A stretch of DNA of 47,535 nucleotides from an uncultured Candidatus Saccharibacteria bacterium (lineage in GTDB: Bacteria > Patescibacteriota > Minisyncoccia > Phycocordibacterales > Phycocordibacteraceae): contig CAZHSZ010000001.1 in the NCBI GenBank assembly GCA_964535425.1, positions 32,489 to 80,023 of the forward strand, given 5' to 3'. Position numbers and translations under genes: made by a program. This document shows positions 2,067 through 29,244 of the stretch, in pieces; positions within the stretch are counted from its first letter, which is position 1; every line of letters begins with the position of its first letter. The notes beneath the pieces were generated by a model. It was not told the origin of the DNA and made no database searches. It saw nothing but the letters and a program-made list of their open reading frames with translations.

Positions 2067-2149
2067 ATAGTGGGGAGAGGCGCCTGTCATATGAGTCTTA
2101 GGTGCTAGAATTTTACCGTATTCTGTATCCGGGCAGATACGTGAACGCA

Positions 2150-2899
2150 ATGAACCTATTTTCTTTACACAAAAACGATACGAGAATTCCTCAGGTCTTT
2201 TCGAATGCGACAATTCTGCCGAATCGGTACTCGTTTCGTTTGGTAAAACGCGTTCGCGCCCGAGAAGTCGTATCCCCACACATTGCGTACGACACGCCAC
2301 TTGAAAATACTCCTGTTTCTGAACCGGTGGTCGCGGAAGATATGGATGTTTCAGAGACGACTGCGTATGAGCGATTTGAACCTACGGAAAACGCTTTGGA
2401 CGATCGCAAAAGGAACTTCCTTAAGCTTGCGAGCCTGGTAGGGCTCGGCGTAGTTGCCGCTTCCGCACTGCCGGAAAAGGCGCAGGCGTACGTTATGGGC
2501 AGTAGTCCTACGAGTGGGGTAGTTGGCGTAAAGAATTCCGGGAACACCCGCATAAACCCCGCTACCGAAGACACGCTTCAGCTTTTGCTCGCCGGAAACG
2601 CCGTACTTAAAAAGACCGTTAGTCTTTCCTCATCGGGAACCGTGCATACGCCCGCTTCCGGAAAAAAGGTTCGCATTTACAATACGAAATTCTCGCTCGA
2701 CGCCACGATGACGAGCGTATCGTTTAGATTTACGTCGGGAGGGACCGATTTTGAAAAATACGTAGCGCCGCGCACGGGCGGTTTGTACGGTACGAATAAT
2801 CATCCTAACTTCAAGGAAGGCGGCACGGATGAGGCGGTATACTGCGCGATAAGCGGTACGGGGAATGTGCAGATAAACATCGATTACCTCGAGGTATAA
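2150..2899 (+). CDS. Putative Tat-exported protein (KR-type twin-arginine-like signal), beta-rich mature domain, unknown function
   Basis: The GTG at 2102 lies inside the promoter-like TGcTAGAAT (2103-2111), so ATG 2150 is the first usable in-frame start. Internal ATG 2342 gives MDVSETTAYERFEPTENALDDRKRNFLKLASLVGLGVVAASALPEKAQA, a textbook-positioned Tat signal (RNFLK motif, h-region, AQA cleavage site). I favour 2342 biologically and report the longer model for safety. Confidence 0.6.
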   Translation: MNLFSLHKNDTRIPQVFSNATILPNRYSFRLVKRVRAREVVSPHIAYDTPLENTPVSEPVVAEDMDVSETTAYERFEPTENALDDRKRNFLKLASLVGLGVVAASALPEKAQAYVMGSSPTSGVVGVKNSGNTRINPATEDTLQLLLAGNAVLKKTVSLSSSGTVHTPASGKKVRIYNTKFSLDATMTSVSFRFTSGGTDFEKYVAPRTGGLYGTNNHPNFKEGGTDEAVYCAISGTGNVQINIDYLEV

Positions 2900-2911
2900 T
2901 ACGATTGATAT

Positions 2912-5344
2912 ATGGCAACACGCGCAGTCGAGCACTTGTTCACCGGAGCCACCACTCCCTACACTTCGTACGACTCAACGAAGACCGTCCTCGGCGACCT
3001 TATCAAGCAGTACACGGGCGCGGGCGCTGAAGATAAGTATGCAGGCCCTATCCGCACCGGTCGTGATAGCGGTTTGACGACCACCTATGCGCTTGCGCGA
3101 CCTAACGAAACCTCGACCGCCGTTCCGGGAGTATTCCCTCATGTCGTGCGCTGGGCAGCAAAGAGCGGATACTACTCGACCGGTACGGTCGCAGTCTCCG
3201 CAACCGCAGTCACCGGTACCTCTACCGACTTTCTCGCTTCCGGTACGCCCGTTGGCGCCCGCATCGGCTTCGGCTCGACGAATCCGGCGTCCATTACGAC
3301 GTGGTACACCATAACGGCAATTGCGTCCGCCACCTCTCTCACCCTGCAGTCAAGCGCGGGCACGGTGGCGGGCGGCACCGCGTATGTCATCGATAAAACC
3401 TATAACCGCGATTGGGTGTTTCTAGCCGACAACGCCGCTGCCGCCGCAACGCGTCGCATAACCCTCTTCGAGTTCAACCGTGAGGATTCGGTCTTTACCT
3501 GGAAAGGATTCATCACGCAGACCTATCCGGCCGCGACCAACCACACCATCCGCGGTATGCGCGCGGTGTACGCAACCTACACCACCGGCACGGTCGCCGT
3601 ATCGGCCGCAACCGTAACCGGTACCTCAACTACCTGGAACACCGACCGTATATTCATAGGCTCGAGAATCGGATTCGGTTCCACCGACCCAACGCAAATA
3701 AGCACGTGGTACTACATAAATGCCGTGGGGTCCGATACCTCCATTACCATTCAGACGAACATAACCGCTTCCGGTACCGGAGGTACGGCGGCGAACATAA
3801 CCATCGCTTCGGGTACTGCGTACGTTATCGAAGACCTTCGCATACTTAATGCGAATACGAACGCCACGACTACGAACGGCGGCCTCTTTATGACCGCCGG
3901 TGTCTCCTATAACGACTTCGTGTCGACCGGTACGACCATAGCTGCCGCGGTGTCGACCGACAAGGTAAAGGCAAACTACTGGCTCGCGGACGCATCTACC
4001 GTGACCAACACTATCGCCGACGGGTGCGCGCTCGACGACCGCGACAGCTTCACTCAGCAATTTTGTTACGTGCTCGACAACACGGCGACACCGAAGGTAT
4101 ATAAATACAATTTCAGGAAAGCGCTCACGCTCGCTTCGGGGAAAGACACCACCTGTCTAGTGCTTACTACGGGAACCCAGGCGCTTACCGGTACCGTCTC
4201 CCAAAACAACAACGGCCGCATCGGTACCTTGGCTTCGGGCGGGGGAGTGAAGGCACTCTATTTCGCAACGACTACCCGCATCTACCGAGCGCCCGTCTCC
4301 GGTATCGTCGGAGGATCCTCTTCATGGGCGGCCGACAGCATGGTGGAAATACCCACGGGCGGCACCTCAACGTACACCGCCTCATCGGCACTAACCTCGG
4401 TTGAAATTTCCGACCAGATTGACCGCCTGCTTATTACAAACACGGGCGGCGGCGCAACCACTTGTAACCGCGCGTATATCACCCAATACAACACCATATC
4501 GACTCCGTTCGATCTTCCGTTTATGATCGATTCGCGCCAAATCGACCAATCCATCGCGGACAACAACGCCTGCCCGCATCCGAGTCCGGCTGGCGCGGCT
4601 ATTTCTACTTGGTCCGAAGCGGGTATCGCCTACATCGTCCGTGCTGGTACCACCTCGGCTACAAACCTTATGTACGCGGTGCCTATCGGTGCGGACTGGG
4701 ATTTCGCCTCCGGTACGGTAAAACAGCGTCTTATCACTCCATCGCTCGCCACTCCAAACGCGATTAAACTAAAGCGTGCGGTCGCAACGAATGAGGATTA
4801 TATGGGTGGCGGTTCACTGCGCTTACCGACCGAACCCTACCGCATGTATTACCGCACCGCGGGCATCAGCGACGATTCTGGTAGCTGGACGTTGATTGAC
4901 CGCACCGGCGACCTGACCACCGCGACCGCAGGCACCGAGATACAATTCATGTTCGAGTTCCGCACCGCAGGAACGTTTTGCCTGCCGAGTCGCATCTTCA
5001 GCGTCTCGTGCCTCTACGAGGACAACACCACCGACAGCCACTACCAGCCATCGGTCGCATTTTCTTCAACGACCAATAAGCGATTCGCGTGGCGCTTCTC
5101 GACCGCATTCGGCTCTACCGTGCCGCGTCTCAAGGTAACCCTTTATGACGCGGTGACCGACGGCGTACTTGCGACCGACGACACAACAACGCTTGCCGGT
5201 ACCTGGGAAAAATCCACAAATGACGGAAGTAGCTGGGGCGCCTACGATTCGAGCGACGTTACGAACGAAACGACCTATATACGCTTCACTCCCGCATCAC
5301 TTGCCGACAACATCAAGGTACGTGCCTTGCTTACTCAGTATTAG
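2912..5344 (+). CDS. Large (810 aa) Thr/Ser/Gly/Ala-rich beta-type protein, no signal peptide or TM, unknown function
   Basis: Uninterrupted 810-codon ORF 12 nt after the previous gene. Internal duplicated module (aa 88-160 and 222-306). No recognisable catalytic motif. A perfect TATAAT (2895-2900) lies 11 nt upstream of the ATG. Confidence 0.7.
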   Translation: MATRAVEHLFTGATTPYTSYDSTKTVLGDLIKQYTGAGAEDKYAGPIRTGRDSGLTTTYALARPNETSTAVPGVFPHVVRWAAKSGYYSTGTVAVSATAVTGTSTDFLASGTPVGARIGFGSTNPASITTWYTITAIASATSLTLQSSAGTVAGGTAYVIDKTYNRDWVFLADNAAAAATRRITLFEFNREDSVFTWKGFITQTYPAATNHTIRGMRAVYATYTTGTVAVSAATVTGTSTTWNTDRIFIGSRIGFGSTDPTQISTWYYINAVGSDTSITIQTNITASGTGGTAANITIASGTAYVIEDLRILNANTNATTTNGGLFMTAGVSYNDFVSTGTTIAAAVSTDKVKANYWLADASTVTNTIADGCALDDRDSFTQQFCYVLDNTATPKVYKYNFRKALTLASGKDTTCLVLTTGTQALTGTVSQNNNGRIGTLASGGGVKALYFATTTRIYRAPVSGIVGGSSSWAADSMVEIPTGGTSTYTASSALTSVEISDQIDRLLITNTGGGATTCNRAYITQYNTISTPFDLPFMIDSRQIDQSIADNNACPHPSPAGAAISTWSEAGIAYIVRAGTTSATNLMYAVPIGADWDFASGTVKQRLITPSLATPNAIKLKRAVATNEDYMGGGSLRLPTEPYRMYYRTAGISDDSGSWTLIDRTGDLTTATAGTEIQFMFEFRTAGTFCLPSRIFSVSCLYEDNTTDSHYQPSVAFSSTTNKRFAWRFSTAFGSTVPRLKVTLYDAVTDGVLATDDTTTLAGTWEKSTNDGSSWGAYDSSDVTNETTYIRFTPASLADNIKVRALLTQY

Positions 5345-5347: not shown

Positions 5348-5980
5348 ATGGTTACCGTTACAGAAAACATGGATATTGCCGGAGATCCGAATCTCACCGT
5401 ATATTCGCCCGCGGGCGAGTACGCGGATACCGACTTGATTTTATGCGCGGATAAAAAAAATCCCGGACTCCCAATCGTCCAGCTTCAAGCCCAGTATCTC
5501 AGGTACGGACCGATTGTGTATCAGTACAACGCTCCGGAAGAACTCGGCGGTGCGCTCTTCGCACTTGACCCCGACTCAACGCACGACGCCGTTCTTTTAT
5601 ACAAGGAAGAGGAGGCGCGCAGAGCGGCACGAATGGGAGGGACGCTTACCCCTTCAGACCCCGTTCCGAGCCCTGATTCGAATGCTGACGCATCTCCCAC
5701 ACCAGAGGCCGAAGAAGAGGATGTAAAGTTTTTCAAGGAACAAGACGCGCAGGGAACTGCTACCAGTACGCCGGAAGTACCGACCACCGACCCTGAAATT
5801 CCCGTCATAGATGCGGGCGAAACTCTCGGCGTATCTACCTCTACCGACTCCGCCATTCCTGTTCCCGAACCAGAAATCCCGACCATCCAGCTTGAAACTT
5901 CAACGACGACTCCAATCGCGCAGCCTGAAGTACCTTCCGTATCAGTACCTGACACTACAGCTACGACCACGCCGGAGTAA
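5348..5980 (+). CDS. Hypothetical protein: globular N-terminal half plus acidic Pro/Thr/Glu-rich tail
   Basis: 210 aa, starting 3 nt after the 810-aa gene stop. The tail contains reiterated PE(V/I)P motifs (PEVPTTDPEIPVID, PEPEIPTIQ, QPEVPSVSVP) and is probably disordered. Confidence 0.55.
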   Translation: MVTVTENMDIAGDPNLTVYSPAGEYADTDLILCADKKNPGLPIVQLQAQYLRYGPIVYQYNAPEELGGALFALDPDSTHDAVLLYKEEEARRAARMGGTLTPSDPVPSPDSNADASPTPEAEEEDVKFFKEQDAQGTATSTPEVPTTDPEIPVIDAGETLGVSTSTDSAIPVPEPEIPTIQLETSTTTPIAQPEVPSVSVPDTTATTTPE

Positions 5981-5987: not shown

Positions 5988-6173
5988 ATGGCTCTTACGG
6001 ACATAGATTTCCAAGAAGGGGAGGGGCAGGATTTCATCGTCGAGCTTGCCCTTGGAGCCCTTGGTACTCCTGCGGACATTCTCACAGAGTCTGCGGAATC
6101 GCAGTACCCCGTGCTTGAGGCACCGCTCGTTACCGGAGGCGGAGGCGACGAAATCTTCATTCTGAACGATTAA
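5988..6173 (+). CDS. Small (61 aa) highly acidic hypothetical protein
   Basis: Internal ATG of track ORF 5811..6173, 7 nt after the previous stop. Product MALTDIDFQEGEGQDFIVELALGALGTPADILTESAESQYPVLEAPLVTGGGGDEIFILND. Supported mainly by operon spacing. Confidence 0.4.
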   Translation: MALTDIDFQEGEGQDFIVELALGALGTPADILTESAESQYPVLEAPLVTGGGGDEIFILND

Positions 6174-6953: not shown

Positions 6954-7112
6954 ATGTTTGGACTCGGCTCAAACGAACTCATCATCATTGCGGTCATTCT
7001 CGTGCTCTTGTTCGGCGCGACGCGTATTCCGGCTCTCACGAGGGGAATCGCTGACGCCATCCGCACGCTCCGCGGTGCGTTCAAGGACGAGGACAAGAAC
7101 AAAAAGGTCTAA
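6954..7112 (+). CDS. tatA: Twin-arginine translocase subunit TatA/E
   Basis: Not in the ORF track (52 aa). MFGLGSNELIIIAVILVLLFGATRIPALTRGIADAIRTLRGAFKDEDKNKKV has the canonical TatA layout: N-terminal TM, the hinge segment LLFGATRIP (canonical form LLFG..K.P), then an amphipathic helix. It starts 12 nt after tatC. Confidence 0.8.
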   Translation: MFGLGSNELIIIAVILVLLFGATRIPALTRGIADAIRTLRGAFKDEDKNKKV

Positions 7113-7130
7113 CTATTTCCTCGCTGAAAA

Positions 7131-7164
7131 ACACCGGCAACGCGCGCGTTGCCGGTGTTTTTCT
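7131..7164 (+). terminator. Rho-independent terminator closing the tat operon
   Basis: Stem acaccggcaac / gttgccggtgt with a GC-rich loop, followed by tttttc. This is the first strong terminator downstream of the promoter at 2103. Confidence 0.7.
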
Positions 7165-7241: not shown

Positions 7242-10200
7242 ATGCATACTCTATTTACCTATTTTTCATCCTTCGTACGGAGCACGCCGGCGCGTATCGC
7301 CCTGTTGGCGCTTGCCGTTTTTTCATTCGCCACGTCGGCGTACGCTGAATACCGCCAGTTCCTACCCGGCGACGATATATACATCGGCGAATTCGTATTT
7401 GACGATGATTTTCAAGCCACCACGACTGCAGGATGTACGCTCACCGTGTACGATCCTTCCGGCACCCTTGTGGTAAACGCCGCCCCGATGACGGTTCCGG
7501 ATGCGAACAGCTACTACGTCTATTCTTTTACTCCGACCAATACCCCGGGGATTTGGCCGGCATATATAACCTGCGGTTCGGCACTAAATGGCAGCCTCGT
7601 GCGCATGGAGAAGACGTTTGAAATAACCGACCGCATCGTTTCCTCGTCGTCCGTTGCAGCACTCGTAAACGCGAACACTAATACCGCAATCGCGACCGCT
7701 TCCTCATCTCTCGCTTCGACACTTCCAAATTCCATTTGGGCGTTCTCCGGAAGAACCCTCACTTCTTTCGGAACGCTCGTTTCGGATATATGGACGAACG
7801 GAACGCGCTCGCTCACCACCTTCGGCACGCTTGCCGCAGACATATGGGCTTCCGGCACACGGACACTCACCGGCTTCGGCACGCTCGCGGCCGATGTCTG
7901 GACGAATGGCACCCGTACGCTCACGGGCGCAGGACTCACAAGCGGAAGTCTCGCAACGCTTAGCGATGTACAGAACGCTTCTTCATCCATCGCCGCGGTC
8001 GTGAATGCGAATACGAATAGCACGGTAAACACTGCTTCTTCCTCTCTTGCCGCAGTCATAAACGGAAACACGAATACGACGGTGCAGACCGCTTCCTCGT
8101 CTCTTGCGGCAGTCATAAACGCGAACACAAACGCAACCGTGCTTACCGCGTCCACGTCGCTCGGCCTTTCGCTGAGCGGAATCGCTTCATCGATAACCGC
8201 GCTTCCGGCAGCCGTCTGGAACGTCGCGACGACAACCATGACGACGCCGGGCACTATCGGCTACGTGCTCGCGAACAACATCGATATCGCTATTTCAGCA
8301 GTATCTGGCGGGGGCGGGGGACTCACCGCGGCTGATGTCTGGGCGTACGGCACCCGCTCACTCACGAGCGCGAGCCTCACCTCCGGAACGCTTGCCACTC
8401 TGCTAGACGTACAGACCGCCTCAAGCTCCGTCGTCGCGCTCGTAAACGCGAACACTAATAGCGCAACCTCCGGAATCACGAGCGCCGTAAACAGCAATAC
8501 GGACGCAACCGTGCTTGCCGCCTCTTCCTCGCTTGCCACCTCCATTCCCGTCAATGTCTGGAATTCTTCCGTGCGAACCCTCTCATCGTTCGGTACGCTC
8601 GTAAGCGATATCTGGTCCGCGGGAAGCCGGACACTCACCGGCTTCGGCACCTTGGCCGCAGACGTATGGACGAACGGCACCAGGACGCTCACCGGCGCAG
8701 GACTCTCTGCAGGATCTCTTGCGCTTCAGTCTGACGTAACGACAGCTTCCTCTTCTCTTGGCAGCGCGATTACGAACAGCCAGACCGCGATAAACGGCAA
8801 TACTGATACGCGCGTCGGTATAGCGTCGAGCTCGATTGCCGCGGTAGTGAACGCGAATACGAATGCGGCCGTACTCGCTGCATCCACCTCTCTTGGTACC
8901 GCAATCTCGAACAGCCAGACCGCTATCAATGCAAACACGGATAGCAGGGTAGGCACCGCCTCGTCATCCCTTGCTGCGGTCATAAACGCAAACACAAATA
9001 CGACGGTACAGACTGCGTCCTCCTCTCTTGCTGCAGTCATCAATGCGAATACGAACGCAGCCGTGCTAACCGCATCCACCTCGCTTGGGTCAACGCTTTC
9101 AAGCATCACTGCCTCTATAGCGCTCATACCCTCTAACGTCTGGGCGGCAGGAAGCCGCACACTCACCGGCTTCGGCACCTTGGCCGCAGATGTATGGACA
9201 AACGGTACGCGCACTCTGACCGGCGCCGGACTTTCCTCGGGCTCTCTCGCTACACTCTCTGACGTGCAGACGGCCTCTTCTTCGATTGCGGCTGTCGTAA
9301 ATGCGAATACCGATACCCGGGTAACGACCGCTTCTTCATCCCTTGCGACTTCGATACCAATCAACGTATGGAATTCTTCAGTACGAACCCTTTCCTCATT
9401 CGGCACGCTCGCAAGCGATGTCTGGAGTGCAGCGACACGCACCCTTACCGGCGCAGGGCTCACAACGGGAAGTCTCGCAACGCTTAGCGATGTTCAAACC
9501 GCTACCTCGTCTCTCGGCTCGGCAATCACCAACAGCCAGACCGCTATCAATGCGAATACGGATACTCGTGTCGGTATCGCAACCAGTTCGCTCGCCGCGG
9601 TCGTAAACGCGAACACCAACGCTACCGTGCTTACTGCCTCGACCTCGCTCGGCTCGACCCTTTCCTCAATCGCCTCCTCAATCACTTCCATACCAGCTAA
9701 CGTATGGGCGGCTGGCACTCGAACCCTCACCGGCTTTGGTACGCTCGCCGCAGACGTATGGACAAACGGTACGCGCACTCTGACCGGCGCCTCGCTTTCA
9801 AGCGGTTCGCTCGCACTCCAGTCGGACGTCACGACAGCTTCAAGTTCGCTCGGGTCAGCTATCACCGCAAGCCAGACGGCGATAAACAGCAATACCGATA
9901 CGCGCGTCGGCATTGCCTCAAGCTCAATCGCTGCGGTCGTGAACGCCAATACCGATAGCAGGGTAACGGTCGCCACTTCTTCCTTGGCTGCTGTGATAAA
10001 CACAAATACGAATAGTGCTGTACTGACCGCTTCCACCTCGCTCGGCTCATCCATAAGCGCGCTCCCAGCGGCAGTCTGGAACGTCGCGACGACGACCATG
10101 ACGACCGTCGGTTCGATCGGAAAAGTGCTCGCTACCAATATCGATACCGTCCTCTCGACGATCGGCGGCGGCTCACTCACCCCTGCCGACATATGGGCAT

Positions 10201-11507
10201 ATGGCACCCGCTCACTCACGAGCGCTGCGCTTAACTCAGGAGCGCTTGCGACCAACGTTGATATCAATAACGCCACGACGAGTGTGAACACGACGATCAG
10301 CACGGCCTCGTCATCCCTTGCCACCGTCATAAACGCCAACACGAACGCAACCGTTCTCACCGCATCCACATCCCTTGCGTCCGGCATCGCAAGCGGATTC
10401 GCCTCGGTGCCGGCGAACGTCTGGGCGTATTCTTCCCGTACGCTTACGGCGTTCGGCACGCTCGCTACCGACGTGTGGAGCGCGGCAACCCGTACCTTGA
10501 CCGGGGCAGGGCTTACAAGCGGAAGCCTTGCAACCCAAACTGACATACAGAATGCGACCACTTCGCTCGCGGCCGCGATTGCAACAAAAGCGACTCTGGT
10601 AAACCAGCAGGCAGGATGGACGGTGCGCCAGTCGGACTTCGGCAGCGTGCTTGCGGGCTCAACTTTCAGGACAAAAGTCACCGTCCTGAACTACCAGAGT
10701 GCGCCGACGACCCCGTTTGCAACTCCGACCGTCACGGTATACGACGCGTCGCGAAACGTAGTCGCAAGCGGAGTCGCGATGACCGCACTCTCTACCGGCG
10801 TGTACGAGTATACGTACTCGGTGGCGTCGCTTGCCGTGCAAGGACAGTGGGAGGCGGTCGTCTCGACGCAGGTTGAATCAGGAAAGACCATTACGACAAA
10901 CGACTACTTCGAAGTTGCGGGCTCGCCGGCGCAGGTGCTAATCCAAAGCATGGGCTCTTTGGCAACGCCAAACATTACGGCGAATGTGCGCATCACGAAC
11001 GAAGGCCTGGCTGACTACGAATACCAGTACGAATGGTGCGTTGTTTCCGATATCAACAACCCTTGCGGCGGCGGAAACGATACGTACTATGCGTCGGCCG
11101 CTAAGCTCATAAACGCCGGAGACAACTTCGATACTGTTCTTTCCGCTACTGTTCCTACCGAAGGTATCTACTACTTCAAGACCGTCGTTTACTTCGGCAC
11201 CGAGTCCTCAGGCGCTTCCCGCCAGTTCACCACAAGCCTCTACGTTCCTCCGACACCGCCCACCGGCGGCGGTCATGGGGGCGGGGGAGGAGGCGGGAGC
11301 GGAAGCTCGGGTAGCGACAGCGGTTCATGCGGCATCGCAGACATAAACTGCGACGGCAAGGTAAGCGCGGTGGACTTCTCCATCATGCTTGCGTACTGGA
11401 AGACGTTCTCGCCGTTCGCGAACGCCCGCGTGGACCTGAACTTGGACAAGAAAGTCGATGCGGTCGACTTCTCAATACTCCTTTATCACTGGGGTAAACG
11501 CTACTAA
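7242..11507 (+). CDS. Giant secreted repeat-fibre protein with C-terminal dockerin module
   Basis: Track ORF starts at TTG 7212. ATG 7242 gives the Sec-type signal MHTLFTYFSSFVRSTPARIALLALAVFSFATSAYA. Layout: Ig-like domain, about 950 aa of two interleaved short repeat families, second Ig-like domain, another beta domain, Gly/Ser linker, dockerin. TGcTACGAT -10 at 7198-7206. Confidence 0.85.
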   Translation: MHTLFTYFSSFVRSTPARIALLALAVFSFATSAYAEYRQFLPGDDIYIGEFVFDDDFQATTTAGCTLTVYDPSGTLVVNAAPMTVPDANSYYVYSFTPTNTPGIWPAYITCGSALNGSLVRMEKTFEITDRIVSSSSVAALVNANTNTAIATASSSLASTLPNSIWAFSGRTLTSFGTLVSDIWTNGTRSLTTFGTLAADIWASGTRTLTGFGTLAADVWTNGTRTLTGAGLTSGSLATLSDVQNASSSIAAVVNANTNSTVNTASSSLAAVINGNTNTTVQTASSSLAAVINANTNATVLTASTSLGLSLSGIASSITALPAAVWNVATTTMTTPGTIGYVLANNIDIAISAVSGGGGGLTAADVWAYGTRSLTSASLTSGTLATLLDVQTASSSVVALVNANTNSATSGITSAVNSNTDATVLAASSSLATSIPVNVWNSSVRTLSSFGTLVSDIWSAGSRTLTGFGTLAADVWTNGTRTLTGAGLSAGSLALQSDVTTASSSLGSAITNSQTAINGNTDTRVGIASSSIAAVVNANTNAAVLAASTSLGTAISNSQTAINANTDSRVGTASSSLAAVINANTNTTVQTASSSLAAVINANTNAAVLTASTSLGSTLSSITASIALIPSNVWAAGSRTLTGFGTLAADVWTNGTRTLTGAGLSSGSLATLSDVQTASSSIAAVVNANTDTRVTTASSSLATSIPINVWNSSVRTLSSFGTLASDVWSAATRTLTGAGLTTGSLATLSDVQTATSSLGSAITNSQTAINANTDTRVGIATSSLAAVVNANTNATVLTASTSLGSTLSSIASSITSIPANVWAAGTRTLTGFGTLAADVWTNGTRTLTGASLSSGSLALQSDVTTASSSLGSAITASQTAINSNTDTRVGIASSSIAAVVNANTDSRVTVATSSLAAVINTNTNSAVLTASTSLGSSISALPAAVWNVATTTMTTVGSIGKVLATNIDTVLSTIGGGSLTPADIWAYGTRSLTSAALNSGALATNVDINNATTSVNTTISTASSSLATVINANTNATVLTASTSLASGIASGFASVPANVWAYSSRTLTAFGTLATDVWSAATRTLTGAGLTSGSLATQTDIQNATTSLAAAIATKATLVNQQAGWTVRQSDFGSVLAGSTFRTKVTVLNYQSAPTTPFATPTVTVYDASRNVVASGVAMTALSTGVYEYTYSVASLAVQGQWEAVVSTQVESGKTITTNDYFEVAGSPAQVLIQSMGSLATPNITANVRITNEGLADYEYQYEWCVVSDINNPCGGGNDTYYASAAKLINAGDNFDTVLSATVPTEGIYYFKTVVYFGTESSGASRQFTTSLYVPPTPPTGGGHGGGGGGGSGSSGSDSGSCGIADINCDGKVSAVDFSIMLAYWKTFSPFANARVDLNLDKKVDAVDFSILLYHWGKRY
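7640..10590 (+). repeat. Coding tandem/interspersed repeat array inside the giant gene
   Basis: About 19 copies of a 16-18 aa motif x(V/I)Wxx(G/S)(T/S)R(T/S)LTxFGTLAx. About 18 copies of a 19-aa motif (V/I)N(A/G/S/T)NT(N/D)xxVxxAS(S/T)SLAA. Some DNA blocks recur identically, e.g. gtatggacaaacggtacgcgcactctgaccggcgcc at about 9191 and about 9753. Confidence 0.9.
11328..11504 (+). other. Dockerin (type I-like) module of the giant protein
   Basis: Two EF-hand-like Ca-binding segments, DINCDGKVSAVDFSIML and DLNLDKKVDAVDFSILL (D-x-N-x-D...D spacing), each followed by a helix. Preceded by the PPTPPTGGGHGGGGGGGSGSSGSDSGS linker. Confidence 0.8.
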
Positions 11508-11510
11508 TTT

Positions 11511-12356
11511 ATGAAAAATTTTAAAACGTTCACGCTGGCTTTTCTTCTCTTTACGGTAGCTGTGCCCATTCATGCGGCGGAACTTTCGATTGAGGCGCCG
11601 CTTGGGGGTGTAGGCTCGCCTATACTACTCCCGGTAGTATTCACTGCCGGCGATGAGTCTGTGAACGTCGTGGAGGGTTCCATTACCATTCCTGAGGGAA
11701 TGGTTGTCGAGCGGCTGGATACCTCGGGTTCCGCGTTTCCCTTGTTCGCCTCGGGACCAACCTATATGCCTTCGTCCCGTACGGTCGAGTTCACCGCAGG
11801 AAGCGAGAGCAACATTGGCGCGCACGAGGTCGCGCTCGTATTCGTGATACAGGCGCGTGCCGAAAAGGAAGCAATGTATGAAGTTTCTCCGGGAACAATA
11901 GCCGCGTACGCGAGCGACGGAGCTGGTACGAAAATTGCCGTAGCCGCACACCCGACACAAGTCAGCGTGGGAGCAAAAGGGAGCGTGCAGGTAGATGCGT
12001 TCCCGAAGGGTGCTCCTCAAACGCTTCTTGCAGAGATAGGGAAGGAAGATTCTCTGTTTGAAGGGAAGTGGTTCCTTACCTTCTTCGGAGGCGCACAGGG
12101 CGCTCCCGTAGCGCGCTATGAGATACGTGAAGGCTGGTGGCGCTTCCCGGTATCAGCGGACCGCTATTACGTCTTGAAAGACCAGGCGCGCCGTACGACG
12201 CTGTTCGTTACTGCAATCGATACGAACGGTAATCGCACGAACATACTCGTACCTGCAGCATACCCTTGGGCCGAGCGTGCCGTACTCTTTGCTATCGCGC
12301 TCATAGCCGCCGTTGCCGCGTATCTTCTTATGCGCCGTCTGCGCAAATACAAATAA
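11511..12356 (+). CDS. Membrane-anchored surface protein with cohesin-like N-terminal domain
   Basis: 281 aa. Sec signal MKNFKTFTLAFLLFTVAVPIHA. Beta-sandwich-like region LSIEAPLGGVGSPILLPVVFTAGDESVNVVEGSITIPEGMVVERLD.... C-terminal TM plus basic tail AVLFAIALIAAVAAYLLMRRLRKYK. The cohesin assignment is weaker than for the next gene. Confidence 0.55.
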   Translation: MKNFKTFTLAFLLFTVAVPIHAAELSIEAPLGGVGSPILLPVVFTAGDESVNVVEGSITIPEGMVVERLDTSGSAFPLFASGPTYMPSSRTVEFTAGSESNIGAHEVALVFVIQARAEKEAMYEVSPGTIAAYASDGAGTKIAVAAHPTQVSVGAKGSVQVDAFPKGAPQTLLAEIGKEDSLFEGKWFLTFFGGAQGAPVARYEIREGWWRFPVSADRYYVLKDQARRTTLFVTAIDTNGNRTNILVPAAYPWAERAVLFAIALIAAVAAYLLMRRLRKYK

Positions 12357-12357
12357 T

Positions 12358-13830
12358 ATGAAACTTCGCCGAAGCATCGTTTTTGCGTTTGCACTCCTTA
12401 TCGGGGCTCTGCCGGGCATTGCGTCCGCAGCCACGCTTTCAGTGTCGCCTGCCGCAACGTCGGTCCACGCGGGCGACATCGTCACCATACGCCTCGTCGC
12501 AAACACCCAAGGGACAGCGATAAACCAGGGAGAGGGTACGCTTCGATTCCCGACCGATATGCTCGACGTCATCTCTACGAGCAAGTCGGGCTCCATATTC
12601 ACCCTCTGGGTGGAAGAACCCACATATTCAAATACTGCCGGCACGATGCATTTTGACGGCGGCGTCCCGACGCCAGGCTTTAACGGCTCTGCCGGCACTA
12701 TCCTCTCAGTCACTTTTCATGCGAAGAAATCCGGCACTGCAACGCTTACGCTTTCTGACGCCGCGCTTCGCGCAAACGACGGACTCGGCACGGATGTCTT
12801 GAATTACGCAGGCGGCGGCCAGATAACCATTACCGAATCGGCACCTGCACCCGCTCCAACACCAACCACTCCACCCACTACCAGCACGACTCCGGAGACC
12901 TCTTCCGGCTCAAGCAAAGACGGAGCAATACTCAGCCTCACTTCAAATACGCACAGCGACCAGAACGCGTGGTATCAGGCGAACAATCCGCTCATGAGCT
13001 GGCAGCTGCCTGCGGGAGCTACAGCAATCCAGACAATTCTCGATGCGGACCCGAACGCCGTACCGACCGTAACCTATAAGCCGGCAATTACCGAGAAACG
13101 TATTGCGAACCTTGAAGACGGCATCTGGTACTTCAACATCCGCGCGCGCATTGGCACCCTATGGGGTCCGGTCTCAAGTTACGCGCTCCGTGTCGATACG
13201 AAGGCACCGGAGCTCGCAAAGGCTTCTTTTGACTATGACGCCGCAAGCCAGCGCGTCGTCATCTCCAGCATCTCGGCTACGGACCAAACCTCCGGCATAG
13301 CCCGCTACGAAATTTCGATTGACGGCGGGGAAGCGGCTGCCATTTCCGCTGAGGAGGCTCTAGGTGGCACTTACGCGTTTAGCTACGCGAAAGCTGGCAT
13401 CCATACGCTTGTACTCCGCGCATTTGACGCTTCGGGCAATTACGCGGAAACCGCGGGCACAATAAACATCCCGACGCCGCTTGCTGACCAAACGCTCTGG
13501 AACATAGGCGGGTTCAATATAACGTTTGCATGGTTCATCATCCTCATCCTCCTCATCTCGCTTCTCTCGCTTGTCGCGGCGGCGACCGCTTGGTACAAGC
13601 TCTATAGGCTTCGCGCAGGCGCGAAGGACCGCACCGAAAAGCGCGACAAGCTCCTGCATCGCTCGCTCCGCATCTACAAGGAAGACCTTGAGCGCCACCT
13701 CCGGACCCTTGAGCGCGCAGGCCAGAAGCGTGAACTCACGGATGAAGAAGCCGACATAAACGAAGACCTCAAAAAGAATGTCGACGACCTCGAGCGCTAC
13801 CTCGCCAAGGAGTTCAAAAAATTCGATTAG
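12358..13830 (+). CDS. Cohesin-domain surface protein with Pro/Thr linker, Ig-like domains, TM anchor and cytoplasmic coiled-coil tail
   Basis: Start moved to ATG 12358 (MKLRRSIVFAFALLIGALPGIASA), 1 nt after the previous stop. Cohesin-like LSVSPAATSVHAGDIVTIRLVANTQGTAINQGEGTLRFPTDMLDVISTS...GTILSVTFHAKKSGTATLTLSDAAL. Linker APAPAPTPTTPPTTSTTPE. TM FAWFIILILLISLLSLVAAATAWY. Confidence 0.75.
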   Translation: MKLRRSIVFAFALLIGALPGIASAATLSVSPAATSVHAGDIVTIRLVANTQGTAINQGEGTLRFPTDMLDVISTSKSGSIFTLWVEEPTYSNTAGTMHFDGGVPTPGFNGSAGTILSVTFHAKKSGTATLTLSDAALRANDGLGTDVLNYAGGGQITITESAPAPAPTPTTPPTTSTTPETSSGSSKDGAILSLTSNTHSDQNAWYQANNPLMSWQLPAGATAIQTILDADPNAVPTVTYKPAITEKRIANLEDGIWYFNIRARIGTLWGPVSSYALRVDTKAPELAKASFDYDAASQRVVISSISATDQTSGIARYEISIDGGEAAAISAEEALGGTYAFSYAKAGIHTLVLRAFDASGNYAETAGTINIPTPLADQTLWNIGGFNITFAWFIILILLISLLSLVAAATAWYKLYRLRAGAKDRTEKRDKLLHRSLRIYKEDLERHLRTLERAGQKRELTDEEADINEDLKKNVDDLERYLAKEFKKFD

Positions 13831-13847
13831 ACAGGGAAGTCGGATAC

Positions 13848-13874
13848 GAAAAACGCTTCCGGAAAACGGAAGCG
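13848..13874 (-). terminator. Minus-strand intrinsic terminator (possibly also serving the + strand cohesin operon)
   Basis: Stem cgcttccg / cggaagcg. On the minus strand it is followed by TTTTTC; on the plus strand no U-tract follows. Confidence 0.5.
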
Positions 13875-13998
13875 TGAAGGTGTGACGCAGAGAATCCAAA
13901 AGGAGCAAAAAAACGAGACTCCAAATTAAAGAACCGACTCCGGGCTCTTAGCTGTAGGGTTCTCCCAAATGAACCGCCCTGGCTAATCTCCGCGTCAC
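13848..13998 (-). ncRNA. Candidate sRNA B (about 150 nt), unknown family
   Basis: Minus-strand promoter-like TTGACC-N17-TACGGT just upstream. The 5' segment GTGACGC (13998-13992) pairs with GCGTCAC (13888-13882) immediately before the terminator hairpin. No coding potential. Confidence 0.25.
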
Positions 13999-14112
13999 AT
14001 AACTACCGTACGTGACCCTTTGATACGGGTCAATCATTCCACTCTCTCCCTACTCCCCCGCGAGATAAAAAACGGCCCACTCTAAGGCTTTCTAGGTAAT
14101 CTCGGGAACCCG

Positions 14113-14280
14113 AGAAAAGAAAACCGTCCGCAATCCTTAAGGATTCGGACGGAATAGAAGTAGCGCGGGGTTGGACTATTGGGGCGAATCATTCATATCT
14201 CTATTCATGGGAATCGGGGTCACACGAACAGAAACTGCCATGAGGCAAAATGACGCGCTTGTCTCACCAACCCCGCACTA
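14113..14280 (-). ncRNA. Candidate sRNA A (about 170 nt), unknown family
   Basis: Minus-strand TTGACA (14312-14307) plus TG-TATAAG (14292-14287). The RNA would start at a 10-bp helix, GCGGGGTTGG (14276-14267) / CCAACCCCGC (14174-14165), enclosing about 90 nt. It would end at the hairpin ccgtccgaatcc/ggattgcggacgg followed by TTTTCTTTTCTC. Confidence 0.3.
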
Positions 14281-14507
14281 AGACACCTTATACAAGTAAA
14301 AATAGCTGTCAACGAGCGTATATAAGGGTTTTAACGGCATGCCACTTCCCCGATTTTTACCGAAAGCGGGGAAGTGGTCTCGGGTTTTGTTTTTTGTAGT
14401 ATTGAAAAATACGCAGGATATATAAACGGAAGAGCAATTAAAGCCTATACGCCGTAAAAGAAGATTGGGCGACGCAGGGAAGGGACCCGCGTCGTCCAAT
14501 CTTCGTT

Positions 14508-14564
14508 ATCTTTTACGACATACTTAGTCCTAGCTCTGCCTAGGCTAAGTATGTCGTAAAAGAT
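14508..14564. repeat. Perfect 20-nt inverted repeat (25-bp hairpin with inner extension)
   Basis: atcttttacgacatacttag (14508-14527) and ctaagtatgtcgtaaaagat (14545-14564) are exact reverse complements. Inner cctag/ctagg extends the stem around a 6-nt loop. Confidence 0.9.
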
Positions 14565-14771
14565 ATATTGTGCGACGCGTACCTATTCTGACCGGAGCAC
14601 TCTCGGAGCCTGAAAATGATGAATACGAAACCGCTCCTTCTCCCCTCTTTTCCACCTACCACTACGACTTTTACCGGCTCGAACTTTATGCGGGTATACG
14701 GGAATAAAAATGTAGAAAAAACTTTTTTGACCCCTTCCCCGAAAATCCGAAAATGGCGGTGGGGAGGGGCT

Positions 14772-14808
14772 AAAACGACAAAAGCAAAAGAGCCGGTTTT
14801 GCCGACTC
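14772..14808 (-). terminator. Intrinsic terminator of the LOG/exonuclease operon
   Basis: Minus strand: GAGUCGG-CAAAA-CCGGCUC followed by TTTTGCTTTTGTCGTTTT, about 30 nt after the LOG stop. Confidence 0.55.
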
Positions 14809-14837
14809 CCCTACTCTTTTGCCCTGTTAACGATTAT

Positions 14838-26574: not shown

Positions 26575-29244
26575 TTATACGGTCTGCTTTCGGCGCGCGG
26601 GGCCGATGAAAAATATTTCCTTTGCCACTTCAATAAGCGCCAAGTTCAAGATGCCGGCGAACACGATGATGGAGAGTTCGGAAAGCGTAAGCGGAACTGT
26701 ATGCACGATGTCCTGGAGGAACGGCACGAAAAGCGCAGCAAGCAAAAGACAGAACGAAAGCGCAAAAGAACCGAGGAGCCACGGATTCGAGTTGAACGGC
26801 ATATTCCAGAGCCTCGTACCGAACGACTTCAGCGCAATAGCACCTGCAAACGAGCTTGCCGAGAGCGCGCCGAACATAATGGTGCGCATATGGTCGTCCG
26901 GCGTACCGGAGAGCACGAGGAAGAAGTGGAGGCCGACGAGCATAATGCCGGTCAGTATGCCCACCGACATAATGAGCTTTATCAAATCCTTGGAGAGCAC
27001 CTGCGCAACGTCCGGATGCTTCGGCGAGCGCTTCATCGCGGACGGATAAAGGGGCTCGAAGGCAAGCGCGACGTTCAGCGGACCGCCCTCAATCAGGTTC
27101 GCCCACATTATTTGCGTAGGCAAAAGCGGAATCGGAAGACCGGTGATGAGTGCCGCAATGATGATGAATATCTCGCTGAAGTTAGTGGAAAGAAGGTACG
27201 CAAGTATTTTCTTCACGTTGTCGCGAAGCCGGCGCCCTTCCTTGATGGCATAGGTGACGACCGAGAAGCTGTCGTTCAGGAGTACGAGATCGGACGCCTC
27301 CTTCGCGACGTCCGTGCCGCTCCCGAGTGCCACTCCTATCGCCGCCGCCTCTAAGGCCGGCGCGTCATTCACGCCGTCTCCGGTCATGGCGACCACTTCC
27401 CCAGAAGCGGTCAGCACGCGAGCGATGCGAAGCTTCTCTGACGGCGTCACGCGCGCAAAGACGTTATGGAGGCGTAAAAGGCGCAGGAGCTCATCGTCGG
27501 TCGTGTCCGCGAGCTCCGCTCCCGTGTATGCGCGCGCCGTGTGGCCTGCAATGCCTACCTCGCGCGCAAACCAAAGCGCGGTCTCCGGATTGTCTCCGGT
27601 GAGCATAATGACGCGCGCGCCCGCCTCCTGCATCTCATGGACGGATGCGCGCGCGTCGCTCCGGATAACGTCGGAGAACACCATAAAGCCGAGGAGCTCG
27701 AGCCTGCGCAGCATATCCGGAAGAGCTTCTTCGGAGGGGAACGCTTTCAGGTCCGCGTCCACCTTCGCGACCGCGATGACGCGCTTTCCTTCGCGCGCCG
27801 CGCGTTTCAGGGCATGGTCGAAGAATTCATGGTCTTCCTTGGTAAACGGCGCGGCACCCCCGCGCGCACCCATAGCAGTCACTGCATGCTCGAGGAACAG
27901 TTCCGGCGCGCCGGTGAGATATGCGATATGTTTCCCATCGTCCTTCACGAGCATCCCGCCGAACCTGCGTGCAGAGGAGAAGCTGAGCTCGTCAGCGCGC
28001 GGAGACTCCGTACGTAGCACCCGCTCGGAAAATCCGGCTTCAAGACCCGCAAGCAGTATCGCCTGCTCTATGGGGCGGCCGCGCGCCACGATTTCCTCTC
28101 CCTTCACCTCAGTGGTGTCGACTTCTTCCGTATATCCGTCTGAGGCAAGCACGGCGGCGCGCAGCATGGCGCGCGCATTCGTGCCGTCCGCGTCTTCAGT
28201 CGTACCGGAGAGCGTGATGAAGCCGACAGCCTTCATACGACCCTCGGTTAAAGTCCCCGTCTTGTCGGTGAGAATAATGCTCGTAGCGCCGAGCGTCTCG
28301 GCCGCCAAAAGATTCCGCACCAGCCCGCCCTGTTTCAAGATGCGCTCCATCCCAAGCGCGAGCACCACGGTGACCGCGGCCGGAAGGCCTTCCGGGATTG
28401 CGGCAACCGCAACTGAGATAGCGATGAGGAACGTCTCCCCCACCGTCATGCCGCGAAGAAGCGAGAGCGCGCCGATGACCGCGATGATGCAGGCGACGGA
28501 AATGAGGAGCATGCGGGCGATGTTCTGTATGTCGCGCTGGAGCGGAGTGACGGTGCGCGTGCCCTTGGCGAGCTCCTTCGCAATTTTCCCGAGCTCCGTA
28601 TCCTCCGCAGTCGCTACCACCACCCCGAGCCCGGTGCCGGAAACGGTAAGCGTGCCCGCGTACGCCATGGAGTAGCGCTCCACGAGAGGTGCGTCCATCT
28701 GGCTTGGCTCTGTCTTCTTCTCGACGGGAATCCATTCTCCCGAAAGCGACGCTTCGTTCACCGTGAGCCCGTGCACGGCAATGAGGCGAATATCTGCCGG
28801 CACGCGTACGCCGGTCGTAAGCGCAATCACATCACCCGGCACCACTTCCTCGGACGGAATTTCCTGACGAAGCCCTTCGCGTATCACGACCGCACGCGAT
28901 GCCTCTTCTTTCGAGAGTGCGGCGAATGCGCCGTTCGCCTTCCCTTCCTGGAAAATGCCTATCGCGACATTTACGAGAAGCGCCAAGGCGATGATGAGCG
29001 CATCGCTGTAGTGCGAGATGAAGAGAGTCGCGAGCGCCGCCGCGAGAAGCACGAGCGCAATGGGGCTTTCAAGCTGCCGCAGAAGGCGGCGGAAAAACGA
29101 ATCCGGTTTTGCGCCTTTGAGCTTATTCTTCCCGTCGGACAAGCGAAGCTCGACCTCGCGCAAAGAGAGGCCTTTCTCGGCAGTTATATGGAACGCATCA
29201 AGCGTCTCGTGCGCGGTGAGCGCATGCCACGGGCGCAAATCCAT
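26575..29244 (-). CDS. P-type (P2-like) cation-transporting ATPase
   Basis: Start moved to ATG 29244 (MDLRPWHALTAHETLDAF...), preceded by TGcTATACT plus 7 nt. Motifs DKTGTLT, MLTGDNPETA, TGDGVNDAPAL. About 10 TM helices. Confidence 0.9.
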   Translation of the reverse strand: MDLRPWHALTAHETLDAFHITAEKGLSLREVELRLSDGKNKLKGAKPDSFFRRLLRQLESPIALVLLAAALATLFISHYSDALIIALALLVNVAIGIFQEGKANGAFAALSKEEASRAVVIREGLRQEIPSEEVVPGDVIALTTGVRVPADIRLIAVHGLTVNEASLSGEWIPVEKKTEPSQMDAPLVERYSMAYAGTLTVSGTGLGVVVATAEDTELGKIAKELAKGTRTVTPLQRDIQNIARMLLISVACIIAVIGALSLLRGMTVGETFLIAISVAVAAIPEGLPAAVTVVLALGMERILKQGGLVRNLLAAETLGATSIILTDKTGTLTEGRMKAVGFITLSGTTEDADGTNARAMLRAAVLASDGYTEEVDTTEVKGEEIVARGRPIEQAILLAGLEAGFSERVLRTESPRADELSFSSARRFGGMLVKDDGKHIAYLTGAPELFLEHAVTAMGARGGAAPFTKEDHEFFDHALKRAAREGKRVIAVAKVDADLKAFPSEEALPDMLRRLELLGFMVFSDVIRSDARASVHEMQEAGARVIMLTGDNPETALWFAREVGIAGHTARAYTGAELADTTDDELLRLLRLHNVFARVTPSEKLRIARVLTASGEVVAMTGDGVNDAPALEAAAIGVALGSGTDVAKEASDLVLLNDSFSVVTYAIKEGRRLRDNVKKILAYLLSTNFSEIFIIIAALITGLPIPLLPTQIMWANLIEGGPLNVALAFEPLYPSAMKRSPKHPDVAQVLSKDLIKLIMSVGILTGIMLVGLHFFLVLSGTPDDHMRTIMFGALSASSFAGAIALKSFGTRLWNMPFNSNPWLLGSFALSFCLLLAALFVPFLQDIVHTVPLTLSELSIIVFAGILNLALIEVAKEIFFIGPARRKQTV

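Follow-up and report, generated by a model that had tools for sequence, protein, structure and literature searches.

The locus

The 47,535-nucleotide (nt) stretch of DNA analysed here (contig CAZHSZ010000001.1, positions 32,489 to 80,023; hereafter, the window) carries at positions 7242 to 13830 three consecutive genes on the forward strand, which we call G1, G2, and G3. G1 encodes a very large secreted protein that ends in a dockerin, and G2 and G3 encode membrane-anchored proteins that each carry one cohesin. Here, we argue that the three genes are a cassette by which a group of Patescibacteria probably hangs non-enzymatic fibres on its surface. The gaps between them are 3 nt (G1-G2) and 1 nt (G2-G3, with G3 read from ATG 12358), and the coordinates of the open reading frames (ORFs) thus agree with the tight same-strand arrangement described in an earlier note on this DNA. 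The G3 ORF opens at 12313, and ATG 12358 was taken as its start. The start of G1 is uncertain: its ORF opens at TTG 7212 and we adopted ATG 7242, but the true start is ambiguous because a mini-ORF of 3 codons (ATG 7197 to TAG 7208), preceded at a distance of 8 nt by a good AGGAG, lies just 5' of the G1 ORF. The features of the three genes, with their amino acid (aa) ranges, are as follows (Ig, immunoglobulin; TM, transmembrane; pLDDT, predicted local distance difference test).

7242-11507, forward strand: G1, the cargo, a secreted fibre protein of 1421 aa counted from ATG 7242
7242-7346, forward strand: Sec-type signal peptide of G1 (aa 1-35), MHTLFTYFSSFVRSTPARIALLALAVFSFATSAYA followed by EY, with cleavage between ...FATSAYA and EY
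7347-7661, forward strand: N-terminal beta-rich domain of G1 (aa 36-140), with the motif IGEFVFDDDFQATTT
7662-10511, forward strand: repeat stalk of G1 (aa 141-1090), about 950 aa, about 50% Thr/Ser/Ala
10512-11246, forward strand: conserved pre-dockerin module of G1 (aa 1091-1335), beta-sandwich type
11247-11327, forward strand: Pro/Gly/Ser linker of G1, PPTPPTGGGHGGGGGGGSGSSGSDSGS
11328-11504, forward strand: C-terminal dockerin of G1 (aa 1363-1421, 59 aa)
11511-12356, forward strand: G2, the short cohesin anchor, 281 aa
aa 1-22 of G2, forward strand: signal peptide
11577-11972, forward strand: cohesin of G2 (aa 23-154), from an AlphaFold2 model with Foldseek matches to cohesins
12027-12251, forward strand: Ig-like domain of G2 (aa 173-247)
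12267-12335, forward strand: TM helix of G2 (aa 253-275, by hydropathy), then the cytoplasmic tail RRLRKYK
12358-13830, forward strand: G3, the long cohesin anchor, 490 aa
aa 1-24 of G3, forward strand: signal peptide
12430-12834, forward strand: cohesin of G3 (aa 25-159)
aa 160-190 of G3, forward strand: disordered Pro/Thr linker (pLDDT below 50)
12934-13194, forward strand: Ig-like domain 1 of G3 (aa 193-279)
13225-13470, forward strand: domain 2 of G3 (aa 290-371), Big_13/FN3-like (Big_13/OmpL47/chitinase-FN3-like)
13525-13593, forward strand: TM helix of G3 (aa 390-412, by hydropathy)
13597-13827, forward strand: cytoplasmic helical tail of G3 (aa 414-490), 77 aa, charged

Dockerin and cohesin domains

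The C terminus of G1 is a genuine type-I-like dockerin. The EF-hand-like loop of dockerins carries Asp or Asn at positions 1, 3, 5, 9, and 12. Pfam Dockerin_1 (PF00404) matches G1 at aa 1366-1413 with 31.8 bits, above the cut-off of 22.9, and orthologous cargos score 27 to 38 bits. The domain consists of a segment of about 22 residues in tandem, each with an EF-hand-like Ca2+ loop and a helix: the loops are DINCDGKVSAVD and DLNLDKKVDAVD, and each is followed by a DFSI[ML]L helix. Among 76 distinct dockerins of the family, loop positions D1, N3, D5, and D12 are 89 to 100% conserved and both post-loop helices (DFSI[LM]L) are nearly invariant, which makes the dockerin internally almost symmetric. 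A profile of 30 family dockerins (A3) matches the solved type I dockerins of Clostridium thermocellum CelS (2mte, 1daq; E = 1e-12) and a dozen other cellulosomal dockerins. The description of gene 1 in the earlier note, a Sec signal and a canonical double EF-hand dockerin behind a Gly/Ser linker, is therefore borne out.

Cohesins bind dockerins through their 8-3-6-5 sheet. In both G2 and G3 the N-terminal domain is a genuine, if divergent, cohesin, and the copies in the window fall just under the curated Pfam threshold. With a cut-off of 24.1 bits, Pfam Cohesin (PF00963) reaches 15.6 in full-length G3 and 19.1 when its cohesin domain is scored by itself, and it does not match G2. The Pfam confirmation that the earlier note had proposed as a check is thus missing from the two proteins of the window, but it is found in the family, where 13 of the 27 cohesin domains examined reach E <= 0.01 (best, 1.1e-10). 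The predicted structures are clear. AlphaFold pLDDT is 90 for G3 and 84.8 for G2, and in the cohesin domains it is above 90 over aa 30-160 of G3 and 86 to 94 over aa 23-154 of G2. Both domains are flattened beta-sandwiches superimposable on solved cohesins: Foldseek matches each of them to dozens of type I, II, and III cohesins of the PDB, with target-normalised TM-scores of 0.70 to 0.81 and root-mean-square deviations of 2.5 to 3.6 A (about 3 A). The top match of both is 2w1n, a Clostridium perfringens cohesin-FN3 construct. Other matches are 2xdh, a non-cellulosomal cohesin of Archaeoglobus fulgidus (target TM-score, 0.76), and 3ul4 and 4dh2, the OlpA/OlpC cohesin-dockerin complexes (0.70 to 0.75), which rank with the closest in structure. 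The earlier note had called the cohesin strongest in gene 3, which holds for the Pfam score but not for the fold, where G2 and G3 are equally clear.

Sequence profiles lead to the same family. Aligned with hhalign, the N-terminal domains of G2 and G3 prove to be homologous (probability, 99.8; E = 2.4e-28). The profile of the G2 family (A2) matches the ScaB cohesin of Ruminococcus flavefaciens at E = 0.013, and an alignment restricted to 27 G2- and G3-type cohesin domains (A4) matches the R. flavefaciens ScaB cohesins 5m2o and 5aoz at E = 8e-5. This restriction was needed because the full-length G3 profile reached in the PDB only the FN3 domain of chitinase A1 (E = 0.007) and no cohesin. Single-sequence PDB searches with G1, G2, and G3 returned noise, namely antibody light chains and, through the Gly-rich linker, a nuclear-envelope protein, and were set aside. 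Residues N35, S58, W63, P67, and G80 and the motifs NDGxGT and SxF.LW are invariant in the cohesins of the family.

Both cohesins should be extracellular, because G2 and G3 have signal peptides with AxA sites and C-terminal TM helices followed by basic residues. Each protein has a single cohesin, lacks a carbohydrate-binding module (CBM), an S-layer homology (SLH) domain, and an LPXTG motif, and ends in a TM helix. The second domain of G2 corresponds to the second Ig domain of G3, and G2 is therefore a shortened G3 paralogue. NCBIfam finds in G3 only a sub-threshold match to an OmpL47-type Ig domain. The C-terminal TM anchors of both proteins and the charged tail of gene 3 had been noticed from the letters alone and are confirmed here; the tail is 77 aa long and helical. 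It carries a conserved R.LT.EE motif, and Pfam and PDB searches found in it neither a signalling domain nor a known partner. G2 has no such helical tail.

Conservation of the cassette

How widespread is this arrangement? We examined the best-scoring 80 loci of each search, and the organism labels are those given by the depositors in the record titles. A G3 profile matched at least 576 contigs among GTDB species representatives, and, among the matches listed, the titles of the metagenome-assembled genome records are of Patescibacteria/Parcubacteria type or generic. A profile search of 1.84 billion representatives at 50% identity gave 4466 proteins at E <= 1e-30, which are mostly full-length G3-like proteins matched in a single stretch.

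The adjacency of the three genes was surveyed from both sides. From the side of G3, we searched 80 fetched loci, the loci collected earlier, and the window with our own hidden Markov models (HMMs) for G3, G2, and the dockerin. The order dockerin protein, G2, G3 is found in 71 of 84 non-duplicate loci, where the dockerin ends 0 to 8 aa from the C terminus of the cargo, and 6 of the 13 exceptional loci are cut by contig ends. From the side of the dockerin, whose profile was searched against metagenome contigs (best 80 of 438 relatives), a cohesin gene starts at most 300 nt downstream in 78 of 80 loci; one of the two exceptions has just 32 nt of downstream DNA. Both G2 and G3 are present in 40 of the 43 metagenome loci with at least 3 kb downstream. 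Close relatives (L001, L003) have the same gene order and a cargo of 2101 or 2140 aa ending in a dockerin, and in more distant ones the triad persists with a cargo that is 347, 5194, or 5857 aa long. The earlier note had allowed that the cognate cohesin might lie elsewhere in the genome and that the adjacency might not be conserved in relatives; both surveys speak for a conserved adjacency. The triad is a conserved cassette rather than a local curiosity, which is a new result of this work.

Some loci depart from the common layout. Three of them (L016, L021, L047) have two tandem G3 paralogues, and L016, with two G3 genes and two tatA genes, has no dockerin gene within reach. What looks like a fusion of dockerin and G2 in L086 stems from a masked run of N and was discarded as an artefact. 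G2 occurs in two size classes, about 200 aa (cohesin and TM helix only) and about 300 aa (cohesin, Ig, and TM helix), as judged from L006, L011-L013, L015, L019, L020, L022, L030, L035, L048, L049, L052, L054, and L063 versus the others. The short form is mostly found with FN3-rich giant cargos (>2000-5800 aa), the dockerins of which are followed by 6 to 8 extra residues. Just downstream of the cassette, two loci encode proteins of about 250 aa (L076:13473-14225 and L080:5206-5964) with an N-terminal hydrophobic segment, a cohesin of the family, and a divergent dockerin (DIDGDGKV...FNNDGRMNFIDFSIILA). From their sequences, these small proteins look like adaptors that could chain cohesin-dockerin links.

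Co-variation of dockerin and cohesin and pairing of the anchors

The dockerin and the cohesins vary together. Over 70 complete triads, the pairwise distances between dockerins correlate with those between G3 cohesins (r = 0.57) and between G2 cohesins (r = 0.47), versus r = 0.20 for the rest of G3 (Ig domains, TM helix, and tail). In partial Mantel tests controlling for the rest of G3, the correlations are 0.56 for the G3 cohesin and 0.44 for the G2 cohesin, values reached by none of 2000 permutations. The dockerins fall into two types. For all nine dockerins of type B (...VNL.DFSI.AYWY...WTG), among them those of L004, L059, and L078, the neighbouring G3 cohesin has LANDGxGT and F[ES]G[IVA][VI][LP]NPG, and those of type A pair with the G3-cohesin motifs R.NDGLGT and FNGG.P.PG. 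Within G3, conservation is highest in the cohesin, where the mean top-residue frequency is 0.65 versus 0.40 to 0.54 elsewhere. We searched for a preferential pairing of either dockerin half with the G2 or the G3 cohesin and found no difference, as both halves co-vary equally.

G2 and G3 are also found joined in one polypeptide. Among the top 150 representatives there are at least 9 independent natural fusions of 800 to 900 aa (P0274, P0280, P0295, and also P0276, P0277, P0283, P0296, P0303, and P0386), with the layout signal peptide-cohesin-Ig-TM-KKK-hydrophobic segment-cohesin-Ig-Ig-TM-tail. A short Lys-rich loop links the TM helix of the G2 part with the signal-like segment of the G3 part, and this topology (TM-KKK-hydrophobic segment) predicts that both cohesins are outside the cell. 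The co-retention of the two genes almost everywhere and the fusions with both cohesins outside point to G2 and G3 being an obligate pair. The suggestion of the earlier note that they are alternative anchors allowing swapping does not fit these data.

Architecture of the cargos

The cargo of the window has two traits of a fibrillar adhesin, an N-terminal secretion signal and a repetitive stalk, and other cargos have arrays of FN3, Big_6, and Big_13 domains. The signal is hydrophobic and has no twin-arginine motif. The beta-rich domain that follows it (aa 36-140) is found by phmmer in 30 loci and has no match in Pfam, NCBIfam, PDB, or PHROGs. The stalk is made of tandem repeats with periods of 54 and 57 nt (Tandem Repeats Finder), in which an 18-mer motif, [DN][IV]W...[ST]R[ST]L[ST], occurs 14 times and a 19-mer motif, ASSSLAAVINANTN, 11 times. 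The period of 19 residues could reflect a coiled-coil fibre, in which case each fibre would bear three dockerins. Pfam MG2 matches the basal module at aa 1138-1218 (37.4 bits; cut-off, 32.8), and this module of about 250 aa (searched with a 255-aa query) is present in the cargos of 50 loci.

We scanned 13 cargos and found only repeats, MG2, FN3, Big_6, and Big_13 modules, and the dockerin; none of them has a catalytic domain. Weak matches to DUF7032, DUF6271, and MC5 in giant cargos contain zero significant stretches and were rejected as artefacts of repeat composition. Complete cargos range from 247 to 2194 aa, incomplete ones are longer than 3300 aa, and the largest called gene encodes 5857 aa. 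Even among close relatives the size changes, from 1421 aa in the window to 2101-2140 aa in loci where G3 is 44 to 71% identical. This architecture and the extreme variability of the cargos suggest a function in adhesion.

In agreement with the earlier note, a scan of the window ORFs of at least 120 aa found no glycoside hydrolase, CBM, or sortase. More broadly, no glycoside hydrolase, carbohydrate esterase, polysaccharide lyase, CBM, SLH domain, or sortase was detected in the 47.5-kb window, and our custom dockerin and cohesin HMMs match within it only G1, G2, and G3. The system is not a cellulosome, because the 13 cargos include no enzymes, CBM, SLH, and sortase are lacking, and the cohesins are single and TM-anchored.

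The Tat genes and other neighbours

The region upstream of G1 encodes components of twin-arginine translocation (Tat) and four proteins that precede them. Two hairpins flank the cassette.

2102-2899, forward strand: p265, with a Tat-type signal at nt 2408-2425 and no Pfam match
2912-5344, forward strand: p810, directly downstream of p265, without a signal peptide
5348-5980, forward strand: p210, acidic, Pro/Thr-rich
5988-6173, forward strand: p61, acidic, 61 aa
6210-6941, forward strand: tatC, upstream of G1
6954-7112, forward strand: tatA, upstream of G1
7126-7163, forward strand: terminator-like hairpin between tatA and G1, with a 17-bp perfect stem and a 4-nt loop
13853-13875, strand unassigned: palindromic hairpin 23 nt past the G3 stop (folding free energy, dG, -21.5; z, -4.95)

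The earlier note had proposed that the fibre system may act with the upstream Tat operon, and this part of its interpretation finds no support here. The tatCA genes are upstream of the cargo in 15 to 17 of 43 loci, where, as read off the table of loci, the cargos are those sharing the N-terminal domain of G1. The hairpin between tatA and G1 has five A before it and five U after it (dG, -37.8 kcal/mol; z, -8.4), and hairpins of different sequence but preserved structure are found at the same spot in two close relatives (about 2727-2757 in L001 and about 2672-2710 in L003). G1 lacks the RR pair and no twin-arginine motif is conserved across the N termini of its orthologues; RRxhh is found in 0 of 70 G2 and 2 of 70 G3 signal peptides. 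The signals of the three proteins are thus of Sec type.

A better substrate lies upstream. After a long N-terminal extension, p265 has KRNFLK, then the hydrophobic stretch LASLVGLGVVAASAL, and then KAQA with cleavage before Y. Its homologues in the fetched loci have [KR]RxFL[KR] at the equivalent place in 11 of 11 cases (9 KR, 2 RR), and p265 is therefore a likely substrate of the adjacent TatC/TatA, as far as its sequence tells. The order p810, p210, 61-aa acidic protein, tatC, tatA is invariable. The p810 family has more than 1557 homologues, which are 60 to 84% identical even where G3 is just 44% identical, and p810 has no match in Pfam, PHROGs, or PDB, including a profile search of the latter. 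It is conceivable that p810, which lacks a signal, hitchhikes through Tat with p265. In our view, the Tat unit is a neighbour of the cassette that may be related to it in function but is not the export route of the fibre, a role that our analysis largely refutes.

Downstream of G3, the G1-G2-G3 transcription unit probably ends at the hairpin at 13853-13875, although this hairpin is uncertain as a terminator because the forward strand has no U-run there. The following 1 kb or so (13831-14837) has no convincing ORF, tRNA, or Rfam match at the gathering threshold, and a second hairpin lies at 14780-14818. The other genes of the window are housekeeping ones: dnaB, recR, cysS, lysS, the mraZ-rsmH-penicillin-binding protein-mur cluster, mreBC, and an S41 protease. 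A reading of the locus as phage tail fibre or prophage was dropped, given these neighbours and the lack of PHROGs matches for G1, G2, G3, p810, p210, p61, and p265. On the reverse strand, a 782-aa ORF without a Pfam match (29749-32097) adjoins a gene for a P-type cation ATPase (26575-29298).

A probable surface-display cassette and its alternatives

We think it likely that Parcubacteria/Patescibacteria share a conserved cassette of three genes for surface display, of which G1-G2-G3 is one copy and which works as follows. G1 would be exported by Sec and form a fibre that has, from tip to base, a distal beta-sandwich, about 950 aa of Thr/Ser/Ala-rich repeats, a basal beta-sandwich, a Gly/Ser linker, and the type-I-like dockerin. 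G2 and G3 would be paralogous type-I membrane proteins, with a cleaved signal and a C-terminal TM helix, and each would expose a single divergent cohesin outside the cell, carried on one Ig-like spacer in G2 and on two in G3. The dockerin, folded around two Ca2+ ions, would plug into the cohesins and thereby tether the fibre non-covalently to the cytoplasmic membrane, in place of a sortase/LPXTG or SLH anchor. The two anchors may work jointly, as a two-cohesin socket rather than as alternatives, and the duplicated, near-symmetric dockerin could engage either cohesin or both. The plug and the socket would remain constant while the cargo is exchanged and resized among species, from 247 to >5800 aa, which fits an adhesin or a fibre for contact with hosts or substrates under diversifying pressure. 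We infer the physical binding, its stoichiometry and Ca2+ dependence, and the adhesive function from the domains and folds, the topology signals, the synteny, the co-variation, and the fusions observed.

The core of this reading, a dockerin-tipped non-enzymatic fibre held non-covalently by membrane-anchored cohesins in an uncharacterised system, is well supported indirectly: the folds and domains are the right ones, the adjacency is reciprocal and near-universal in more than 150 independent loci, the co-variation exceeds that with the rest of G3, and we found neither catalytic domains in the 13 cargos nor a description in the literature. It preserves the central idea of the earlier note, a fibre held by membrane cohesins, without its anchor swapping and its link to Tat. 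Several points weigh against it. The cohesins of the window itself fail the Pfam threshold. In L016, L070, L075, and L097, either G2 or the dockerin gene is missing. The conservation of the adjacency proves a functional coupling, not a direct contact. In the test of co-variation, the rest of G3 is an imperfect proxy for phylogeny, and within type A alone the partial r is just 0.23 to 0.24 (reached by at most 1 of 2000 permutations), so that much of the signal reflects one deep split between types A and B. Finally, nothing was found that points directly to an adhesive function: the distal domain has no known ligand and the stalk matches nothing in the PDB and PHROGs.

The same plug-and-socket anchoring could instead hold a structural coat or spacer, such as an S-layer-like or glycocalyx-like array or a ruler of the envelope. 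The cassette does behave as a near-core, single-copy locus over very many species, the cargos are built of stalk-type modules without a recognisable ligand-binding domain, and the Thr/Ser-rich stalk could be glycosylated. Yet, nothing suggests self-assembly, and the cargos differ hugely in length and domains among close relatives (and overall, as described above), a variability more typical of adhesins and host-interaction proteins than of lattice coats. We find a coat distinctly unlikely. It is improbable, in our judgement, that G2 and G3, rather than static anchors, are a dedicated device acting after Sec, with the membrane-proximal cohesin of G2 catching the dockerin as it emerges and passing it to the taller G3, or a sensor of cargo occupancy signalling through the G3 tail. 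This would make sense of cohesins standing at different heights (one versus two Ig spacers, and the disordered 30-aa linker of G3), of the conserved R.LT.EE motif in a cytoplasmic tail that G3 alone has, and of a dockerin that is always at the extreme C terminus, the last part to leave the translocon. But the height difference is not constant, as the G2 of one clade is just a cohesin and a TM helix (about 200 aa), the searches gave the tail no signalling domain or partner, and the fusions and the equal co-variation of the dockerin halves fit sequential and simultaneous binding alike.

We give even less credit to the idea that dockerin and cohesin do not touch, the former being a Ca2+-stabilised cap, the latter binding something else, for example host glycans or peptidoglycan, and the genes being neighbours by co-regulation. 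Cohesin-like folds without a known dockerin partner do exist, such as the CLIPPER domain of fibrillar adhesins, which is among our Foldseek matches; non-cellulosomal dockerins of unknown function are common; and the sub-threshold Pfam scores of the window cohesins would be no surprise. It is difficult to reconcile this with an adjacency that is reciprocal and near-exclusive, with a co-variation specific to dockerin and cohesin, with motifs that switch together in all 9 cases, and with a cohesin that is the most conserved region of G3 despite being the most exposed. Very improbable, finally, is a fibre system that functionally belongs to the Tat operon and has G1 or its anchors exported by Tat. 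Its basis is the position of tatC and tatA, directly upstream of G1 on the same strand, and the recurrence of this layout within one subfamily of cargo N-terminal domains; opposed to it are the signal peptides without conserved twin arginines, the U-run hairpin kept in relatives, the absence of Tat genes from the cassettes of other cargo types, and the conserved signal of p265.

The surface-display cassette could also have a wider role. It may be the general organelle with which Parcubacteria-type Patescibacteria display surface proteins and attach to hosts, in which G2 and G3 form an obligate heteromeric socket, embedded in the membrane, that clamps both faces of the dockerin at once, the tail of G3 connects the base of the fibre with a partner inside the cell that senses force or determines the position of the fibre, and the cargo is swapped and resized to track hosts. 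As a whole, this extended version is unlikely, if not negligibly so. Were it true, the clamping of both faces of one symmetric dockerin would be a binding mode that classical cellulosomal type I pairs do not use.

Comparison with known systems

The Parcubacteria/Paceibacteria are a major part of the bacterial diversity that is still uncultivated, and the prevailing view is that they live attached to other cells. To our knowledge, almost nothing is known of how they hold on. The cassette would offer a concrete candidate for an attachment apparatus and a marker to find in metagenomes the surface fibre of each species. Two cohesins and one 60-aa dockerin make a small recombinant system that is independent of cultivation. 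The cohesin-dockerin pair would be extended to a TM-anchored paired receptor, to non-enzymatic giant cargos, and to a lineage without a cellulolytic lifestyle, and protein-assembly engineering would gain an orthogonal, apparently highly conserved specificity group with two co-varying subtypes.

Large extracellular dockerin proteins have been described in other host-dependent nanobacteria and proposed to act at the host interface, as G1 might: the "Dockerin-type" giant proteins of Omnitrophota (bioRxiv 10.1101/2023.11.21.568195) and SEML1_0315, an essential dockerin-domain protein of the saccharibacterium Southlakia epibionticum (PMC10633639). Neither a cognate cohesin nor an anchor is described in these reports. 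In the Omnitrophota proteins the dockerin-like repeats are internal, unlike the single terminal dockerin of the cassette, and SEML1_0315 has a hydrolase and a tRNA gene next to it instead of cohesin genes. Our search of the full-text literature on cohesins and dockerins in the candidate phyla radiation (CPR), Parcubacteria, and Patescibacteria found no account of the three-gene cassette.

In its logic, the closest analogue is the ScaE cohesin of R. flavefaciens, which reportedly anchors the X-dockerin proteins ScaB and CttA. In CttA, an adhesion protein without catalytic activity, the C-terminal dockerin is held at the cell surface by one cell-bound cohesin, as we propose for G1, and it is cohesins of R. 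flavefaciens (5m2o and 5aoz, see above) that the G2/G3 family matches best by sequence in the PDB. ScaE differs in being linked covalently to peptidoglycan by sortase (LPXTG) and in being part of an enzyme-carrying cellulosome. The cassette has TM anchors, always two paralogous cohesin proteins, no enzymes or CBMs, no X-module, and a cargo encoded by the adjacent gene. The envelope cohesins of C. thermocellum (OlpA and OlpC, type I with SLH; SdbA, OlpB, and Orf2p, type II with SLH), which have one or a few cohesins each, also capture dockerin proteins, as the anchors of the cassette would do, and the dockerin of the family is most like the type I dockerins of this species. However, these anchors attach to the cell wall by SLH, their partners are glycoside hydrolases or CipA, and they do not form a cassette of cargo, anchor, and anchor.

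Cohesin-dockerin pairs outside plant-cell-wall degradation, as here, are represented by the A. fulgidus cohesin (2xdh) and by the GH84C cohesin-FN3 and toxin complexes of C. perfringens (2w1n, 2vo8), of which 2w1n shares with G2 and G3 the arrangement of a cohesin followed by an FN3/Ig domain. These modules are soluble or borne by enzymes, and they lack the TM-anchored pair, the three-gene cassette, and the giant fibre. The sortase/LPXTG fibrillar adhesins of Gram-positive bacteria resemble the cargo in having a signal peptide, a distal domain, a repetitive stalk of variable length, and a C-terminal anchor module. They are anchored by LPXTG to peptidoglycan, whereas the cassette would use a non-covalent, presumably Ca2+-dependent attachment of the dockerin to a pair of membrane proteins. 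By analogy, the system could work like a fibrillar adhesin with a dockerin in place of LPXTG and a dedicated membrane receptor. What is new relative to the known systems is the TM anchor, the always-paired paralogous receptor, the strict cassette of cargo, anchor, and anchor, the exclusively non-enzymatic, hypervariable, and often giant cargos, and the occurrence in Patescibacteria.

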